From: a virus | Lineage: Duplodnaviria > Caudoviricetes | IMG/VR virus record: IMGVR_UViG_3300028833_003296 | Coordinates: 15,736-79,735 of that record | Length of the DNA stretch: 64,000 nucleotides | Reading direction: 5' to 3' (one strand) | Shown here: piece by piece, positions 3,679 to 27,188 of the stretch | Numbering within the stretch: the first letter of the stretch is position 1 | Layout: every line of letters begins with the position of its first letter | Translations under genes and position numbers: made by a program | Notes under the pieces: model-generated | The model's input: the letters and a program-made list of their open reading frames with translations, nothing else | Told to the model about the DNA's origin: nothing | The model's database searches: none

Positions 3679-3713
3679 CAAATTTAGTTTTCGTTGCGGG
3701 GAAATAAAAATAC
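3679..3713 (-). promoter_or_regulatory. Prophage A late-type promoter GTATTTT-N20-TAAATTTG
   Basis: Bacteroidetes -7 box TAnnTTTG with the same upstream motif and 20-nt spacing as 9887-9921 and 21282-21316. Confidence 0.6.
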
Positions 3714-3716
3714 GCA

Positions 3717-4166
3717 TCACAGATTGCCAACAAGCCCTTTCTTCTCGAAGATGTCTTGCAGGGCTGTAGCGATGAGTCCATTGTATGCCTGGCCGTAATA
3801 GCTTGCCTCGAATTCTGACAAGCGCATCACGCTGGAGTAATATTTTCGAGAGAACCAGTCGCGTTTCTTCCTGTGCTTGTCGCTGGTCTTCCAGTCCTTC
3901 AGGAATTCCAAATCGCCAGGGTTGCCACGATAATAGCCGTTACCAGTTCCTGCGGCTACATAGATACCATACTCAAAGAAACGGTGTTCGATGCTTTTGC
4001 CGTTGAGCGTTCCCGTTATCGACCGATACAATGCGCCAGTGCGATAGATGCCGAGCTTCAGCATCCGCTCGCGCCAATAGACCGTCATCTCCTTGGTCCA
4101 TTCTTCCTCATACTTGCGCAGGTCTTCCTCGCTAACGGGAGGCTGCATGTTATTCTTCCCATTCAT
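3717..4166 (-). CDS. Phage neck/tail-completion-like protein
   Basis: 149 aa in the structural operon. Weak similarity (YRTGAL / VRTGRL) to 50826-51224. Confidence 0.55.
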   Translation of the reverse strand: MNGKNNMQPPVSEEDLRKYEEEWTKEMTVYWRERMLKLGIYRTGALYRSITGTLNGKSIEHRFFEYGIYVAAGTGNGYYRGNPGDLEFLKDWKTSDKHRKKRDWFSRKYYSSVMRLSEFEASYYGQAYNGLIATALQDIFEKKGLVGNL

Positions 4167-5439: not shown

Positions 5440-5703
5440 CTACATGAATAGCCAGACACACAGGAACCCGCCGATTACACCGATTTGTCCCCATTGGATG
5501 TCCGCCCAGTCGAAGCGTGTTCCCTTGATTACCTTGTCGTAGAATTTCTTGCCGAAGAGAGCTGTTTCGGAAGCGAGTGCGCCGGTGAGTGCGCAGGCAA
5601 TGTTCGACCAATCGGCACCACCCTTCAGGGCAAGTGCCACGATAGTTAAGATAATAAAAGCACAGATGATGTGCTTGATTTTGTCTAATCCGAATTGTTT
5701 CAT
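5440..5703 (-). CDS. Small membrane protein
   Basis: 87 aa hydrophobic. Clear homologue of 33335-33598 (ALALKGGA.WS.I.CA ... GQIGV..GFLC.WL.M). Confidence 0.7.
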   Translation of the reverse strand: MKQFGLDKIKHIICAFIILTIVALALKGGADWSNIACALTGALASETALFGKKFYDKVIKGTRFDWADIQWGQIGVIGGFLCVWLFM

Positions 5704-5715
5704 ATTGATTGTTTT

Positions 5716-6303
5716 TTATTTATCAGGACCAAGTATAAAATCACTTGTTCCAAGTTTCCCAAATAGTTGACCACTTACTTTGTCGTACACATAACCAACA
5801 ATACCAATTCTGACAGGAATTAAATTAATACGAATAATTCCATTCTCATCTTTTGCGTAAAAATTATAAATATTGTGAACTCCTCCTCTGTTATCTCCAA
5901 TTCCCCATTTGAACAAATTAATACCATTTATGGTATAATCTACACTCGACACTGTTTTTTTTGTTTCTGTCCAAGAAAATTTAATTGTATTTCTGTTTAC
6001 ATCAATTTGTATACGTTCGTTGCGCGGTACTGTTATATCGTTATATACATTTTCCGTATTATTAGTCCAAACGATGCCGTTAGTTTTTGTCCAAAATCCA
6101 ATTTTATATGGGTTTCCGTATATAATTGCTGCATAGGCGTTTTGATTAGATATTCTCATGAAGTCAAGATGCCAAGACCAATTGTTATTAATTTTAATAG
6201 GTACGTAAATATATTCTGCGCCACTATTTCTTAAATATTCCACCTCTGCGTCATACGGCAAATCATTCTGTGATGTTCTCCTTTTCATTAATCCAAGATT
6301 CAT
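5716..6303 (-). CDS. Tail-fibre-associated beta-sandwich (LamG-like) protein
   Basis: PYDAEVEYL N-terminus and LIPVR..GYVYDKVSGQLFG..GT.DFILGPD C-terminus, typical of Bacteroidales phage fibre modules. AT-rich core. Confidence 0.55.
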   Translation of the reverse strand: MNLGLMKRRTSQNDLPYDAEVEYLRNSGAEYIYVPIKINNNWSWHLDFMRISNQNAYAAIIYGNPYKIGFWTKTNGIVWTNNTENVYNDITVPRNERIQIDVNRNTIKFSWTETKKTVSSVDYTINGINLFKWGIGDNRGGVHNIYNFYAKDENGIIRINLIPVRIGIVGYVYDKVSGQLFGKLGTSDFILGPDK

Positions 6304-7252: not shown

Positions 7253-8086
7253 TTATCCGTTAAAGAGAAACATGGTTGATTCCTTCGTGTTCTCATGATC
7301 CACGAAGTGATTGTATTTATATTCGTCCGAATCCGCGTATGCGGGATAGTCGTCGATGCTGTCGTCGAGCGTGTTCATCAGTCGTCTGTACATCACTTTC
7401 TCTGCCGATTTGTCGCCACTCACGTGCAAGCCAATCAACTGTTGTATGAGCAGGATAATCTTTGCGTTTTCGGATGATACGGCATCAGTCACCGTCTCCG
7501 TCAGCAGCTGCTCCATGTAGGCGTTGCCGATGTGCCTGCGTATGATGCCGTCTGCCTCCATGATGAGTGGCTGTGCCTTGCGCCAGTCGTTGATGGTGGG
7601 AGAATCCACGCCCGCATACTTAGCGAGAAAATCAAACTGCCAGAAGAGCGTAGGAACAAGGCTTTGGCGCAACGGCAGTGCGCCCCAACCCTCCAATTTG
7701 AAGAGCTGGCCAAACAGGGCGCACTCCATGCGTTTTTCCTCTACGTCGAGTTGACTCTTCAGGGCATCCGTTCGCATCTTGCTTGCAGGAGCCGTGTCTT
7801 GTGTGCTCACCACGCCGAATCCCGTTGCCGTCAGCACGAGGTCAAGACTGCGGAAGTTGCGGAGAAAGGCACGGAACGAGATGAGTGCCTTTGCCGAGCA
7901 CACCAAGTTGCCGTCTTCGCCAGTCTCCACAGCTTCCACGCCTACGTTGCCCAATATCTCTGTCGCCACTTCCTCCGTTGCCCTTCGTATGGCCTTCGTC
8001 AACGTCTCGTACACGTCGTTGTTCTTGGTCATGGCCACGGGGAGTGCCGCTTCAAATTCCTCTTTCGATATATATATGTTAGCCAT
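7253..8086 (-). CDS. Head-tail connector-like protein (DUF6712-like)
   Basis: 277 aa directly after the portal. Positional homologue of 62189-63067. Confidence 0.55.
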   Translation of the reverse strand: MANIYISKEEFEAALPVAMTKNNDVYETLTKAIRRATEEVATEILGNVGVEAVETGEDGNLVCSAKALISFRAFLRNFRSLDLVLTATGFGVVSTQDTAPASKMRTDALKSQLDVEEKRMECALFGQLFKLEGWGALPLRQSLVPTLFWQFDFLAKYAGVDSPTINDWRKAQPLIMEADGIIRRHIGNAYMEQLLTETVTDAVSSENAKIILLIQQLIGLHVSGDKSAEKVMYRRLMNTLDDSIDDYPAYADSDEYKYNHFVDHENTKESTMFLFNG

Positions 8087-22773: not shown

Positions 22774-25700
22774 TTAGTAAGGTGCCGCTTCCTTTTCTGG
22801 TGGTGGAAATGGTAAATCCTCCTCTTTCCTCTCTTCCCTGGCATCTGCCACGTCTTCCATGTCGGGCAAATCGCCTGTATAACTATCAAGATTGATGCCA
22901 AACTTGTCGCTGATCATCTTGTAGTCGAAACATAGCGGGCGGTCTTGATGCCAAATGGTCTTATAGCCTATCACCTTGTCACCGTCCATCATTTGTTCCA
23001 GTATTGCCTGCCCATTGGTGTTGAACTTCTTGAATCTTTCCGGATTAGAGGCGGTACCAAGGTATTCTGGTGATATCTGCAAATAGTGAAGGATTGACTC
23101 TGAGGGCAACAGTCGTTCGTCCATCTGTCTTCCAAGCTGCCTGTAGGTGGCCAACATGATGTTCTTTCTTATCATCAGGATTTGGCGGGGTGCCTCGAAG
23201 TGGAACGCGTCTTTGCTCTTGTTGGTCTTCAGGCTGTCCTTGGTCTTGATGATATAGTCTTGTCCATACATGAAACTGCCTTTTTGCTGGGCACTGCTGA
23301 TGATGTTCCAGAAGCCCGACACTTCATCGGTGGAAGCGCACATCTCATTCTGCCTGACGATGCCGTTCACGCAGATAGTGAGCAGGTCTTCGTATGCGAA
23401 CGGAAAGTCCAACACTCCCTGCAGGGCAAGATAGGCAGAGAGGGGTATAAGCCAGTTGCGCTCGATGCGGTCCATAATCTCGCGTCCCTTCAACCTGAAT
23501 TCAACGTCTGCCTCTGCTTTCTTCCATGCTCCGCCAAACGATGCCTCGAACTTCTCGCGGTGCTTCAGTATGTCGAGCGTGATATGTGTGGCTCCCATCA
23601 GGCGGTAATGCAGCAGTTCAGTGAATCGGTTTCTCTCCTCCTGGGTGTGGTGCTGCTTGTCATAGGTGAGGTAGATAAGCCGGGTAAACAGGGCGATATC
23701 TGCCGTCGGCATTTCCTGACCTGTGATGATCACGCCTGAATCCACGCGAGCTTGCTCACGCTTCTTGTCCTTGTCCATGTTCATCCTACTTCTACCGATG
23801 CCTCCCCACAGGTCTTTCAGCCATTCAATCTTCTTGATGTCAATGCCGTTCTTGTACTCGTCCAGGTGTATGAGCGCATTGCTCACGCTGGCCACTGCAT
23901 CGGCCAATGCCGGTACCGATGCCGTTTCGATGTTCTGCGGCTCGTTGTCGGTCATGAAAAATGTCATCAACGTCTCTGCCAGTTCGGTCTTTCCCGAACC
24001 TTTTGGACCGAAGATGTTCAGCAACGGGAAGAATCTCGCCTTGGGCTTTACGATATCCCTGAACAAAGTAGCAAGGTAGAACGACAATCCCACCTTCGCA
24101 TTGTCGCCGAACACTTCTACAATCTTGCTGAAGTATTCGCGTAGGGTGAAGTTGGAATAGTTCTGGTGACGGAACTTTCTTTCGTTGGTAAACAGTTCGG
24201 TGGAGTCCTTATAGAGTTGGCTCATGGCGGGCAGGTAGTATTTGCCAGCCTTCAGGCGAACGATGCCCATGTTGTCGATGGGCTGCCATTGGCCGTCTTC
24301 CTGCGCTCCGTTGCAGAAGCAGAAGAAGCCTTGCTTTTGCCAACCAAGTTGCTTTATCTCTACGGCGGTCTCTGTCACCTTGGCCAAGTATCTTTGCAAC
24401 TGTATCAGCGGTTCCTCGCTTGCCAACCACGTGTAGTTACCGATGCCGAGCAGTTTCTTGCGGAGTGCCTTGGCGGAGGTGAATACCTCCATGTCGAGTT
24501 CAATGATTTCCTTCTTGTCTTCTGGATCGTCGTTGTTAATCTCGAACAAGCGCACTGGGCGTATGTCGTCCTTGATGTGAAAGAGCGGTTTCAAGGTGAA
24601 GTTCGACCATTGTATTTCGGCACCCTCCTTGTTGGTACCATAATAGCAATGGTGTTTCTCGATGAATCCAAACTGCCTGAGCATGTCGATATCGCCACTC
24701 TTGTTGCGTCGGCTCTGCTCTTCCATGCGCCTGCGCTTGGCTGCCTTGAATGCGTTCTGCCACTCGTCCTTGTGGCCGTAGGTGCCCGATAGCTTGGTGA
24801 TGTATGCCTTCTGGATGTTCTCGTCGGTAATGAAGACTATCAGGTCGCATATCTTGTTAATCAGCGACAGGCGGTCCTCGGTGGTGGCTCCGTCATCCCA
24901 CTCCTTGCGGGCATACCATACCAAGAATTCCTCTTCTCCCATGGTGGAGAACTTGACGGTGTCGGTGATGTAGCTGTCGGGGTCCAACTTCTTTCCCGTC
25001 TCGTTGGGTATCTCGCGCACACTGACGGTAAAGCCTTGCCTTACTGCCAACGAACCGTTCTTGATGACGTTCTTGTCACCAGCTCCCATCTTCTCCCCTG
25101 CCTTGGGCACGTCGGAGTCGGGAATGAAACAAAGCGTGGCATTGAATCGCCTGAGCATGTCCAATTGGCTCTCAGTCCATGCACCGCCGAGCGACGCAAC
25201 GGTGTTGAGAATGCCGATGCTCTGCAACTTCATCACGTCGGGACCGCCTTCCACCAAGTATAGCTTTTCCTCCTGGCGTGCCTTGCGTGCGGCGGTGTCG
25301 ATACCGAAAACGGATTTGTCCTTGTGGTAAATCTCGCTTTCGCTGGAGTTCATGTACTTGCGGTCTTCATGCTCCGACAATGTGCGGGCCGTCCATCCCG
25401 TGATGCGCGAATAGCGGTCGCGGATGGGAATCATCAGCCTGTTGCGGTAGAACGAGTAGAGCTTGCCCGTCTTCTCGCTCTTGCGGAGCACGCCCATCTC
25501 TTCGAGTATCTCCAACTGCAATGCCTTGCCGTCGCACCAGCTGGTGAGGTCGTCCCATGAGTCGGGCGCAAAACCGATGCGCATCTCCTTGCAGTATTCC
25601 TTGTCCCAACGGCTCAACATGTAGCCCTTGGCTGCCTTGGCTTCAGGCGTGTCGGCCTGCAGGCACTCCTCGAAGTACTGACAGAGGTAGTCGTTGTAGA

Positions 25701-26061
25701 TAAACATGGTCTCACGTCGCTTCTGCGCTTCCTCCTCCTCTGGCGTAGCCTGGTAGTCGGTCTCCTTCAGGTCGATGTGCAATTCATCCTTCAGCAGCTT
25801 CTTCACCGCCAACGGGAACGGGAGGTTTTCGGCCTTCATCACGAAGCCGATGACGTTGCCTCCCTCGTTGCAATTGCCGAAACAATGCCAAGTGCCCTTG
25901 GATGGCTGCACACAGAAACTCGGTGTCTTCTCCTCGTGGAACGGGCAACACGCCCAGAGGCGGCCACCCTTCTTATGAAACTGACCGCCGATGTAATTAG
26001 ACACCACGTCTTCGATGTCTATACGGTCGAGAATCATGTCAATGTACTTTTGTTCAATCAT
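22774..26061 (-). CDS. DNA primase-helicase (CHC2 zinc finger, Toprim, P-loop)
   Basis: CCPFHEEKTPSF..WHCFGNC, LVEGGPDV, FIPDSD, GPKGSGKT motifs. 1095 aa. Confidence 0.92.
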   Translation of the reverse strand: MIEQKYIDMILDRIDIEDVVSNYIGGQFHKKGGRLWACCPFHEEKTPSFCVQPSKGTWHCFGNCNEGGNVIGFVMKAENLPFPLAVKKLLKDELHIDLKETDYQATPEEEEAQKRRETMFIYNDYLCQYFEECLQADTPEAKAAKGYMLSRWDKEYCKEMRIGFAPDSWDDLTSWCDGKALQLEILEEMGVLRKSEKTGKLYSFYRNRLMIPIRDRYSRITGWTARTLSEHEDRKYMNSSESEIYHKDKSVFGIDTAARKARQEEKLYLVEGGPDVMKLQSIGILNTVASLGGAWTESQLDMLRRFNATLCFIPDSDVPKAGEKMGAGDKNVIKNGSLAVRQGFTVSVREIPNETGKKLDPDSYITDTVKFSTMGEEEFLVWYARKEWDDGATTEDRLSLINKICDLIVFITDENIQKAYITKLSGTYGHKDEWQNAFKAAKRRRMEEQSRRNKSGDIDMLRQFGFIEKHHCYYGTNKEGAEIQWSNFTLKPLFHIKDDIRPVRLFEINNDDPEDKKEIIELDMEVFTSAKALRKKLLGIGNYTWLASEEPLIQLQRYLAKVTETAVEIKQLGWQKQGFFCFCNGAQEDGQWQPIDNMGIVRLKAGKYYLPAMSQLYKDSTELFTNERKFRHQNYSNFTLREYFSKIVEVFGDNAKVGLSFYLATLFRDIVKPKARFFPLLNIFGPKGSGKTELAETLMTFFMTDNEPQNIETASVPALADAVASVSNALIHLDEYKNGIDIKKIEWLKDLWGGIGRSRMNMDKDKKREQARVDSGVIITGQEMPTADIALFTRLIYLTYDKQHHTQEERNRFTELLHYRLMGATHITLDILKHREKFEASFGGAWKKAEADVEFRLKGREIMDRIERNWLIPLSAYLALQGVLDFPFAYEDLLTICVNGIVRQNEMCASTDEVSGFWNIISSAQQKGSFMYGQDYIIKTKDSLKTNKSKDAFHFEAPRQILMIRKNIMLATYRQLGRQMDERLLPSESILHYLQISPEYLGTASNPERFKKFNTNGQAILEQMMDGDKVIGYKTIWHQDRPLCFDYKMISDKFGINLDSYTGDLPDMEDVADAREERKEEDLPFPPPEKEAAPY

Positions 26062-26190: not shown

Positions 26191-26320
26191 CGGAAAGATT
26201 GGATATGCTGTTTCACCGTTCTCACTCTCGCTTGACTATCTGCATTTTCCTGATTGCAGGCACACGTGATTTCTTTCGCAAAAAAAAATTGCGAAACAAG
26301 TAAAAATATATTTGATTTTG

Positions 26321-26352
26321 TTTGCGTATTTCAAATGGTTTTCGTACCTTTG
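26321..26352 (+). promoter_or_regulatory. Canonical Bacteroidetes promoter TTTG-N20-TACCTTTG
   Basis: Exact consensus, about 75 nt upstream of the 20-aa ORF. Confidence 0.7.
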
Positions 26353-26404
26353 TATTGTCAATGAGAGACAAGCAGAGGAATCCGAAAATCTTGAAAAGAG
26401 TAGG

Positions 26405-26528
26405 AAAAACGAAAACCCGAAAGCCTTATGGAAGCCACAATTTTCATTAGGATTTGGAAATTCAAAATCAAACTCAAAGTTTGGATTTGAGAACCAAAGG
26501 GAGGGGAAACCCTCCCACCTTCGGGTTT
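26405..26528 (-). ncRNA. Candidate antisense antitoxin RNA (about 125 nt)
   Basis: Promoter TTTG-N19-TATCTTTG at 26535-26565 on the minus strand. The transcript covers the peptide ORF, its ends pair (GAAAACCCGAA / UUCGGGUUUUC) and it ends in a U-run. Confidence 0.5.
26428..26490 (+). CDS. 20-aa cationic amphipathic peptide, candidate type I toxin (not in ORF track)
   Basis: MEATIFIRIWKFKIKLKVWI*. Has its own promoter, 5'/3' UTR complementarity and a convergent antisense promoter. Confidence 0.6.
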   Translation: MEATIFIRIWKFKIKLKVWI

Positions 26529-26577
26529 TCGATGCAAAGATAGTCATATTTTTACTAACAACAAAATTTTTAACGCT

Positions 26578-26784
26578 ATGGAATTTCACGCTGAAATCGA
26601 AATGCCAGAAAAGAAATCTGGAAGAGGTGGCGCACGCGAAGGTGCGGGACGCAAACGCAAGGGAGTGCATTACTATGGATTCAGGGCAACCCAAGAGGTG
26701 CACGACATCCTCTCGAAAGTAAATGGCTCCAAAGCCGACTTTATCAACCAGTGCATCATTAAGGCTGTTGGCAACGGTGAATAA
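26578..26784 (+). CDS. Small DNA-binding protein (GGAREGAGRK motif, ribbon-helix-helix-like)
   Basis: SGRGGAREGAGRKRK followed by YGFRATQEVHDIL..SKADFINQCIIKAV. Confidence 0.7.
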   Translation: MEFHAEIEMPEKKSGRGGAREGAGRKRKGVHYYGFRATQEVHDILSKVNGSKADFINQCIIKAVGNGE

Positions 26785-26954
26785 ATACACGGGAATAGTT
26801 TGTTTGTATATAATATCATTAGCCATCTTGTACACCTTTCCTCTTGAACGTTCAAGGTTCTCAACCCTCCCTGTGCCAAGGTCTTGTTGTTTTTTATCTT
26901 GCAAGGTTCGCTTTTTGAGAACCTCTTGCACCAAGACCAAGGCACTTTTTTCGG

Positions 26955-27188
26955 TCACCTTTCAATAATATCTTGCAATGTACTGATGATGTCATCTAAG
27001 TTGCTTGCAGCATCTTCAAGGTCGCTGACATTATCAGACATAGATTCACCACGTTCTGAGTTTTGGATGGATTCAGGCAAATTGTCGTATGCCTCCTGTT
27101 CCTCTTCACCCACATTCTCAATGTCATTTTTGAGCGATTCAAGCTCAGAAATGATTTTTTCTATTCTGCTTCTTCTTTCCTTATTCAT
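26955..27188 (-). CDS. Small acidic coiled-coil phage protein
   Basis: MNKERR..EEEQEAYDNLPESIQ.SERGE pattern common in phage early regions. Confidence 0.75.
   Translation of the reverse strand: MNKERRSRIEKIISELESLKNDIENVGEEEQEAYDNLPESIQNSERGESMSDNVSDLEDAASNLDDIISTLQDIIER

Follow-up and report, generated by a model that had tools for sequence, protein, structure and literature searches.

What is encoded in the 516-bp gap between a primase-helicase gene (22774-26061, minus strand) and a lone plus-strand gene (26578-26784) of a rumen Bacteroidales phage, and does the sequence matter as protein, as RNA or as DNA? The 64,000-nucleotide stretch in which the gap was studied, hereafter the window, is part of a 79.7-kb virus record (IMG/VR record IMGVR_UViG_3300028833_003296; Caudoviricetes) that CheckV rates as complete, and it occurs in public runs from the guts of sheep and other ruminants. 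All positions given are those of the window. A first-pass annotation, made from the letters of the window, had proposed a hidden type I toxin-antitoxin-like module at this site, and each element that it named is there, at the positions it gave. In this study, we compared the site with its relatives and find a compact cassette consisting of a short open reading frame (ORF), a convergent antisense gene that covers it and a downstream gene for a small protein. The comparative evidence argues that these parts are real and that they occur and are inherited together. As to function, we favor a type I toxin-antitoxin-like module that would work like Ibs/Sib with an added DNA-binding regulator, a reading that we regard as evenly balanced between right and wrong. 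The features on which the argument turns are the following.

26321-26352, plus strand: sense promoter, with a -33 TTTG at 26321-26324, a 20-nt spacer and a -7 TACCTTTG at 26345-26352
26428-26490, plus strand: small ORF of 20 codons and a stop, for a cationic peptide with alternating hydrophobic residues
26535-26565, minus strand: antisense promoter, with a -33 TTTG, a 19-nt spacer and a -7 TATCTTTG
26529 to 26405, minus strand: predicted antisense RNA of ~125 nt, a four-way junction closed by a helix (P1) and followed by a U5 run
26578-26784, plus strand: gene for a 68-residue protein with a disordered Gly/Arg-rich N-terminal arm, GGARxGAGRK, and a predicted strand-helix-helix domain

Coding potential of the small ORF

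From a conserved ATG the frame stays open for 16-26 codons in all 15 lineages compared, despite a hairpin in the ORF body (hairpin 2, below) that differs among them in length and sequence, and the other two frames meet a stop after a mean of 3 and 9 codons. Among 14 distinct alleles of 20 codons, mean column entropy at codon positions 1, 2 and 3 is 0.88, 0.49 and 1.01, respectively, and the second position of codons 12, 14, 16, 18 and 20 is invariably T while the first and third positions vary freely. Such a run of T at alternate second positions reflects selection for a hydrophobic residue at every other position and is not the product of an RNA helix. Within a phage population of Segatella copri, the changes inside the ORF are two synonymous substitutions and one Leu-to-Phe, and the bases right after the stop codon vary freely. 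The small ORF is a real coding sequence under coding selection.

The peptides carry a net charge of +3 to +5 in all cases (+4 in the window). Their hydrophobic moment peaks at 165-170 degrees in 10 of the 15, nine of these ten being significant against shuffles (p < 0.05); the helical moment is low and the grand average of hydropathy (GRAVY) is 0.2-1.4. The alternation of hydrophobic and basic residues that had been read from the window is thus seen among the relatives as well, the ORF being open in every intact copy and its product cationic, with beta-type periodicity in those ten peptides. The coding length also falls within the small-protein range of type I toxins (under ~60 residues).

RNA structure shared by the two strands

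The ORF lies within a structured element that can be drawn on either strand.

26410-26423, both strands: ORF-start arm of P1, the 5' arm in the mRNA and the 3' arm in the antisense RNA
26518-26531, both strands: distal arm of P1, the 3' arm in the mRNA and the 5' arm in the antisense RNA
26424-26451, both strands: hairpin 1, containing the ATG and the beginning of the TTTCCAAAT block, weaker on the minus strand
26453-26498, both strands: hairpin 2, with the ORF body and stop codon
26499-26516, both strands: hairpin 3, GC-rich with a 7-bp stem and a 4-nt loop, 99% of cells paired

Both strands fold into the same four-way junction (z = -4.9 for plus and -6.3 for minus, relative to shuffles). The complementarity of 13 in 14 between the segment ahead of the ATG and one 3' of the ORF, reported by the first-pass annotation, was confirmed as the pairing of the two P1 arms, and the GC-rich hairpin that it placed between them is present as hairpin 3. 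The single A.C mismatch of P1 on the plus strand is a G.U pair on the minus strand. The TTTCCAAAT block (26445-26456 on plus) consists of invariant columns and is the most conserved stretch of the antisense RNA.

A covariance model, R1, was built from eight seed sequences in the antisense orientation; it found 33 instances and scores 152 bits at the window. At E <= 0.01 it did not reach L034 and L054, which were assigned to the family by eye and by their layout of ORF, promoters and helices. In the R1 alignment, which was fitted to the model and is hence biased toward structure, 91.7% of cells are standard pairs and changes on both sides are seen in 27 of 35 pairs (P1, 11/13; hairpin 2 tip helix, 7/7; hairpin 3, 5/7). 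Covariation in this alignment is 0.45, compared with 0.14 in shuffles (0 of 500 reach 0.45) and <=0.13 when the partners are slid, and these slid controls argue that the RNA structure is real despite the fitted alignment. Plain MAFFT alignments with RNAalifold recovered hairpin 3 alone; the rest needed the curated seed and the covariance model.

Which strand the structure serves is less clear-cut. Counting one sequence per lineage, 17 P1 pairs work only on the minus strand and 8 only on the plus strand, and a gapless count gives 18 and 5. Whole-molecule minimum free energies for the two strands (summed, -728 and -710 kcal/mol, with 35 and 43 G.U pairs) did not decide the strand. The wobble preference is modest and suggests that P1 belongs at least as much to the antisense RNA as to the mRNA. 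It would also fit a scenario in which the antisense strand alone matters, as a structured small RNA that acts either in trans or at the protein gene's leader, with the ORF untranslated; the TTTCCAAAT block is largely unpaired in the minus-strand fold and could seed other targets. We consider this scenario improbable. Three-base periodicity and an invariant second-position T are not expected of a non-coding complement, the frame would have no need to stay open through hairpins of varying length, and the ATG is conserved at the distance that separates the DUF805b leader motif (see below) from start codons.

Convergent promoters and the predicted antisense RNA

The promoter pattern used here, TTTG-N18-21-TAnnTTTG, is the Bacteroidetes consensus. 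It occurs 12 times in the window against 1.24 expected from shuffles, and the promoters of both cassette strands are exact matches, in agreement with the two consensus promoters of the first-pass annotation. The sense TAnnTTTG box is found at the same distance in 13/15 lineages. The antisense -7 box is kept in 15/15 and is present in every further intact copy, and a -33 TTG or TTTG stands 19-20 nt from it in 9/15. The antisense promoter is located between the structured element and the downstream gene, 40 nt upstream of the latter.

The predicted antisense RNA is complementary to the entire ORF together with its initiation region. Its start at ~26529 is assumed to lie a few bases past the -7 box, and the U5 run (26409-26405) is taken as its end; every lineage has a U-rich tail after P1. 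The earlier claim of an antisense RNA of about 125 nt ending in a U-run stands, as a prediction, with these ends. A type I antitoxin is an antisense gene with its own promoter, complementary to the toxin mRNA, and on sequence the promoter, the covariation and the U-rich tail point to such a gene here.

Contigs from RNA libraries hold the ORF region (X24, from one tiny run and permuted) and the protein gene (X21 and X23), which we take as a weak hint of expression. X24, from a very small cDNA run, is a 124-nt contig that is circularly permuted, 26464-26506 being joined to 26413-26493 with six letters shared at the joint; possible explanations are template switching by reverse transcriptase on a structured RNA, a circular molecule, and a relative with a tandem copy. 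X21 is a 339-nt contig identical to the window at 26543-26881. It begins 35 nt ahead of the ATG of the protein gene, immediately beyond the antisense -7 box, and reaches into the 5' arm of a putative terminator (below). An mRNA that is processed or has a start of its own could explain where the contig begins, as could a simple break in the assembly at the variable element.

The sense transcript and its leader

No plus-strand terminator follows the 3' arm of P1, and the sense transcript therefore probably continues into the downstream gene. This bears on the fold-back mRNA that the first-pass annotation had likened to those of known toxins. The helix itself is present and covaries. With no terminator after it, the arm does not appear to be at the 3' end of the mRNA, which makes the analogy with Hok and AapA weak, and the wobbles favor the minus strand. 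Four further features belong to the sense transcription unit.

26310-26336, unstranded: palindrome TTGA-N15-TCAA (here ATTTGA...TCAAAT), centered on the sense -33 element
26355-26371, plus strand: 5'-terminal hairpin of the sense transcript, read from the sequence
26372-26406, plus strand: in the 5' leader, a DUF805b RNA motif (Rfam RF02914) with its end 21 nt ahead of the ATG of the small ORF
26873-26951, plus strand: putative terminator of the sense transcript, a long hairpin followed by T6, read from the sequence

The arms of the palindrome are retained in nearly all lineages when these are aligned on the -7 box, and the perfect arms are longer, 8-10 bp, in some of them (L054, L065 and L217). 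It is a candidate operator, to which the downstream protein might bind. The hairpin at 26873-26951, which is absent from the hairpin scan list since its loop is too long, is the likely terminator of the sense transcript, judging from its form. Relatives have hairpins at the same 5' place as 26355-26371, with stems that appear different by eye.

The DUF805b motif was missed in the first pass. It scores 43.9 bits against a gathering threshold of 35.6 (E = 1.1e-10), and 47-52 bits in L003, L004 and L022. The leader belongs to DUF805b (RF02914, clan CL00115) by its score and by its place before a start codon; Rfam classes the motif as cis-regulatory and gives no mechanism, and what distinguishes the present case is its position before a 20-codon ORF within a sense/antisense pair. 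At unrelated loci it ends 22 nt (L080) and 17 nt (L082) before the start codon. Other cassette lineages (the L005 group, L034, L054, L065 and L074) have a different hairpin with a purine-rich tail that falls below the DUF805b threshold. Across copies in unrelated contexts (L080:1501-1560, L082:1501-1552 and the X21/X23 contigs at window 26374-26409) the distance to the start is 17-25 nt. One copy precedes a 23-codon ORF in S. copri and another precedes a 64-residue Cys-containing small protein with a signal peptide. DUF805b seems to be a leader element of general use, set at a fixed spacing from start codons. A literature search found no discussion of the motif.

The downstream protein and a possible regulatory switch

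The 68-residue protein has no match in Pfam, PHROGs, NCBIfam or PDB sequence profiles, and Foldseek against PDB found none. Its homologues form 73 clusters, all unnamed. AlphaFold2, run on 49 sequences, gave a mean predicted local distance difference test score (pLDDT) of 74, with values >90 for residues 31-60 and helices at 39-47 and 52-64 after an extended segment. Structural matches found with VIA-align are weak (Z only 3.0-3.7, root-mean-square deviation ~2 A over ~40 residues); most of those listed carry titles of ribbon-helix-helix (RHH) type regulators or toxin-antitoxin antitoxins (AmrZ, ArtA, ParG, CopA, Arc and omega), which we largely take to be of the RHH fold class. The protein thus models as RHH-like. 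The GGAREGAGRK gene of the first-pass annotation is present with its arm, and its assignment to the RHH class comes down to this weak model match, sequence families giving none.

The GGARxGAGR arm with a strand-like segment is also found as the N-terminal DNA-binding part of LexA/S24-type repressors in several Bacteroidales genomes (L075-L078, 3001 onward), and the same arm heads unrelated larger phage proteins (L066-L071).

A regulatory protein behind convergent promoters raises the alternative that the cassette is a non-toxic phage decision or immunity switch, in which the peptide would serve as a regulatory micro-protein, or its ORF as a leader whose translation keeps the mRNA alive. Coliphage 186, with its face-to-face promoters, and the P22 immI region, where sar RNA is found with Arc and Mnt, offer parallels. 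The layout lends itself to such a switch: the protein gene can be reached by the sense transcript only across the antisense promoter, whose -33 element overlaps the start codon of the protein in several lineages, and the conserved palindrome sits over the sense -33 element. The arm shared with LexA/S24-type repressors, neighbors that are often regulatory (P22-type antirepressor, GerE, HTH_3) and a peptide devoid of a transmembrane helix fit as well. However, the physico-chemical pattern of the peptide is strictly kept while its sequence and hairpin drift, which a mere translated leader would not need, and the pair is also found without an intact protein gene. The stop codon of the ORF and the start of the protein are 88 nt apart, with the latter in unstructured A/U-rich sequence, and no path for coupling or attenuation is visible. 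We hold the switch to be the main rival and a real possibility, albeit a doubtful one.

Distribution, neighborhood and alleles

Relatives were sought with the protein, DNA patterns and the covariance model. The cassette is present in >100 IMG/VR contigs of Prevotella, Segatella and Bacteroidales phages, in metagenome contigs and in genomes titled Prevotella, Segatella copri or Bacteroidales, and, among 151 genomes sampled from the same family, in 7. The peptides fall into at least 24 distinct lineages. The three-part module, for which the first-pass annotation proposed translated and covariance searches, does recur across Bacteroidales phages together with its RHH-like gene. A blastn search of the region against 50,697 deposited phage genomes gave 0 matches.

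The genes that flank the cassette vary. They include the primase in the window and L003, a serine recombinase/resolvase in L074, a P22-type antirepressor with a GerE gene in L207, and others. Across these differing neighborhoods the cassette is always a plus-strand island amid minus-strand genes, and in the window further minus-strand genes lie 3' of 26578-26784. Its intergenic location adjoining a primase-helicase gene could suggest that the element acts as DNA, as a replication origin or a recombination site whose inverted repeats mimic RNA helices. This is very improbable. The primase is a neighbor only in the window's own clade, and elsewhere a resolvase, an antirepressor or other genes take its place; the helices tolerate G.U pairs, which in DNA are A.C mismatches; consensus promoters bracket the element on both strands; and a coding signal is present. 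The replication-origin reading was set aside on these four grounds.

A stop-free minus-strand frame of 240 codons (26236-26958) spans the whole cassette and has a counterpart at L217:719-1480. In relatives, gene callers annotate this long frame, which is most likely spurious and conceals the cassette from annotation.

The pair of peptide and antisense RNA is not tied to an intact protein gene. In L117 it adjoins an integrase gene and no protein gene follows, and a Bacteroidaceae-family genome (L237) has two copies of the cassette (3705-4051 and 5680-6025, ~345 nt each and 1,975 bp apart), both with a truncated protein gene and no sense promoter. Each L237 copy is bounded by the same 40-nt sequence, of which a third, solitary copy occurs 1.3 kb further on (7297-7359); this could be an array of repeated cassettes or else a small mobile unit. 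Type I loci are known to occur in tandem repeats (PMC8594479).

Among the phages of Segatella copri from one metagenome there are two alleles of hairpins 1 and 2 with the peptide, of 23 and 20 codons (L005:2777-2929 and L006:2774-2929), which do not differ in the closing helix, hairpin 3, either promoter or the protein gene. Two alleles between identical flanks are as expected for a sense/antisense pair that determines specificity. In L161:7538-7683 the hairpin 3 loop is exactly reverse-complemented relative to L006, the copies being otherwise near-identical, and this difference is a hairpin-mediated inversion. Decayed copies are seen in bacterial contigs. All that is left in L201:1430-1700 is the distal arm, the antisense box and a protein gene that has degenerated, and in L233 and L234 (~1501-1622) a truncated ORF starts with GTG and the antisense promoter is absent.

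Proposed mechanism

Under the type I reading, the sense promoter would give an mRNA with the 5' hairpin, the DUF805b leader, the small ORF and the RHH-like gene, with no terminator between them, and the convergent promoter would give the compact four-way-junction RNA complementary to the ORF and its initiation region. Pairing of the two RNAs may block translation of the peptide or trigger cleavage of the mRNA. Once the antisense RNA falls, the peptide would harm the cell, probably at membranes. The downstream protein would bind the palindrome over the sense -33 element and set the level of the sense transcript. We infer that both RNAs are made with the ends given above, and repression, toxicity and binding to the palindrome are likewise proposals of the model. 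The roles suggested by the first-pass annotation, prophage maintenance or abortive infection, are conjectural. The standing of the pair without a protein gene in L117, and with truncated protein genes in L237, speaks for this reading.

Several points weigh against it. Nearly all known type I toxins have a hydrophobic transmembrane helix, and this putative toxin lacks one. The evidence on transcripts consists of RNA-library contigs from four runs, which carry no strand, ends or expression level and may stem from DNA carry-over; they leave most of the stretch uncovered, which is uninformative. The cassette is present in a single copy in the window's phage, and its neighborhoods are often those of phage regulation (antirepressor, GerE, HTH_3 and other helix-turn-helix genes), which suits a switch equally. 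Among the type I families of Rfam there is no match, SIB_RNA reaching 17.2 bits against a gathering threshold of 56 (E = 3.1). To our knowledge, no type I system has been described in which the sense transcript continues into a regulator gene, as it appears to do here.

Relation to known systems

The closest likeness is to Ibs/Sib of E. coli, and it is one of architecture only. Both have a very short ORF, of 18-19 codons in Ibs and 16-26 in the cassette, that is fully covered by a cis-antisense RNA of ~125-140 nt from a convergent promoter, and tandem copies occur here too (L237). Ibs peptides are extremely hydrophobic membrane helices, whereas the present peptides are cationic with beta-type periodicity, and neither sequence nor covariance models indicate similarity. 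The cassette also differs in being phage-borne in Bacteroidota, in the DNA-binding gene that follows and in the four-way junction of its antisense RNA. The predicted antisense RNA spans the whole ORF, an arrangement that among type I systems is found only in Ibs/Sib (PMC8594479).

With Hok/Sok and AapA1/IsoA1 the cassette shares a long-range helix that sequesters the region just before the start codon and a cis-antisense RNA. In those systems the 5' region pairs with the true 3' end of the mRNA and is released by 3' trimming, and the toxins are helices of 30-52 residues. Here, in contrast, the mRNA seems to continue into another gene and the wobbles of the helix favor the antisense strand.

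Small RHH regulators of other modules offer a further comparison, namely omega of omega-epsilon-zeta and Arc/Mnt with sar in P22 immI, the latter combining RHH repressors with a short antisense RNA. A small RHH-like protein and a promoter palindrome are common to these and to the cassette. The differences are that the protein has no sequence similarity to any RHH family, its fold match being weak (Z 3-3.7), and that the gene order and the peptide of the cassette have no counterpart there. In CopA/tap/repA of plasmid R1, an antisense RNA lies over a short translated leader ORF upstream of a second gene, as it does here. The stop of the R1 leader is coupled to the next start and the leader sequence is unconserved, whereas in the cassette the 88-nt gap intervenes and the peptide pattern is conserved. 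The cassette is not a member of any described family.

Significance

A literature search found no described type I or antisense system for Bacteroides or Prevotella phages and no description of this module. A 2025 paper (PMC12390103) restricts the known range of type I systems to Proteobacteria, Firmicutes and Tenericutes, with a single candidate from cyanobacteria, and ascribes this narrowness to search bias. The cassette could be the first type I family of Bacteroidota and their phages, with a cationic beta-amphipathic toxin of 16-26 residues, a four-way-junction antisense RNA, an RHH autoregulator and exchangeable alleles that prevent cross-neutralization between co-resident phages; we advance this fuller claim tentatively, as one somewhat more apt to fail than to hold.

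If the module is of type I, the range of such systems would extend to a dominant gut phylum by way of gut and rumen Bacteroidales phages, and a type of peptide would be added that is beyond the reach of hydrophobicity-based searches. The orphan DUF805b motif gains a concrete context, as a leader ~20 nt before start codons. The cassette also provides a compact sense/antisense pair with natural allelic variants that is directly testable in Bacteroides genetics. Even if the peptide is non-toxic, the locus is a clear example of selection acting at once on a peptide and on an RNA fold encoded by the same DNA.

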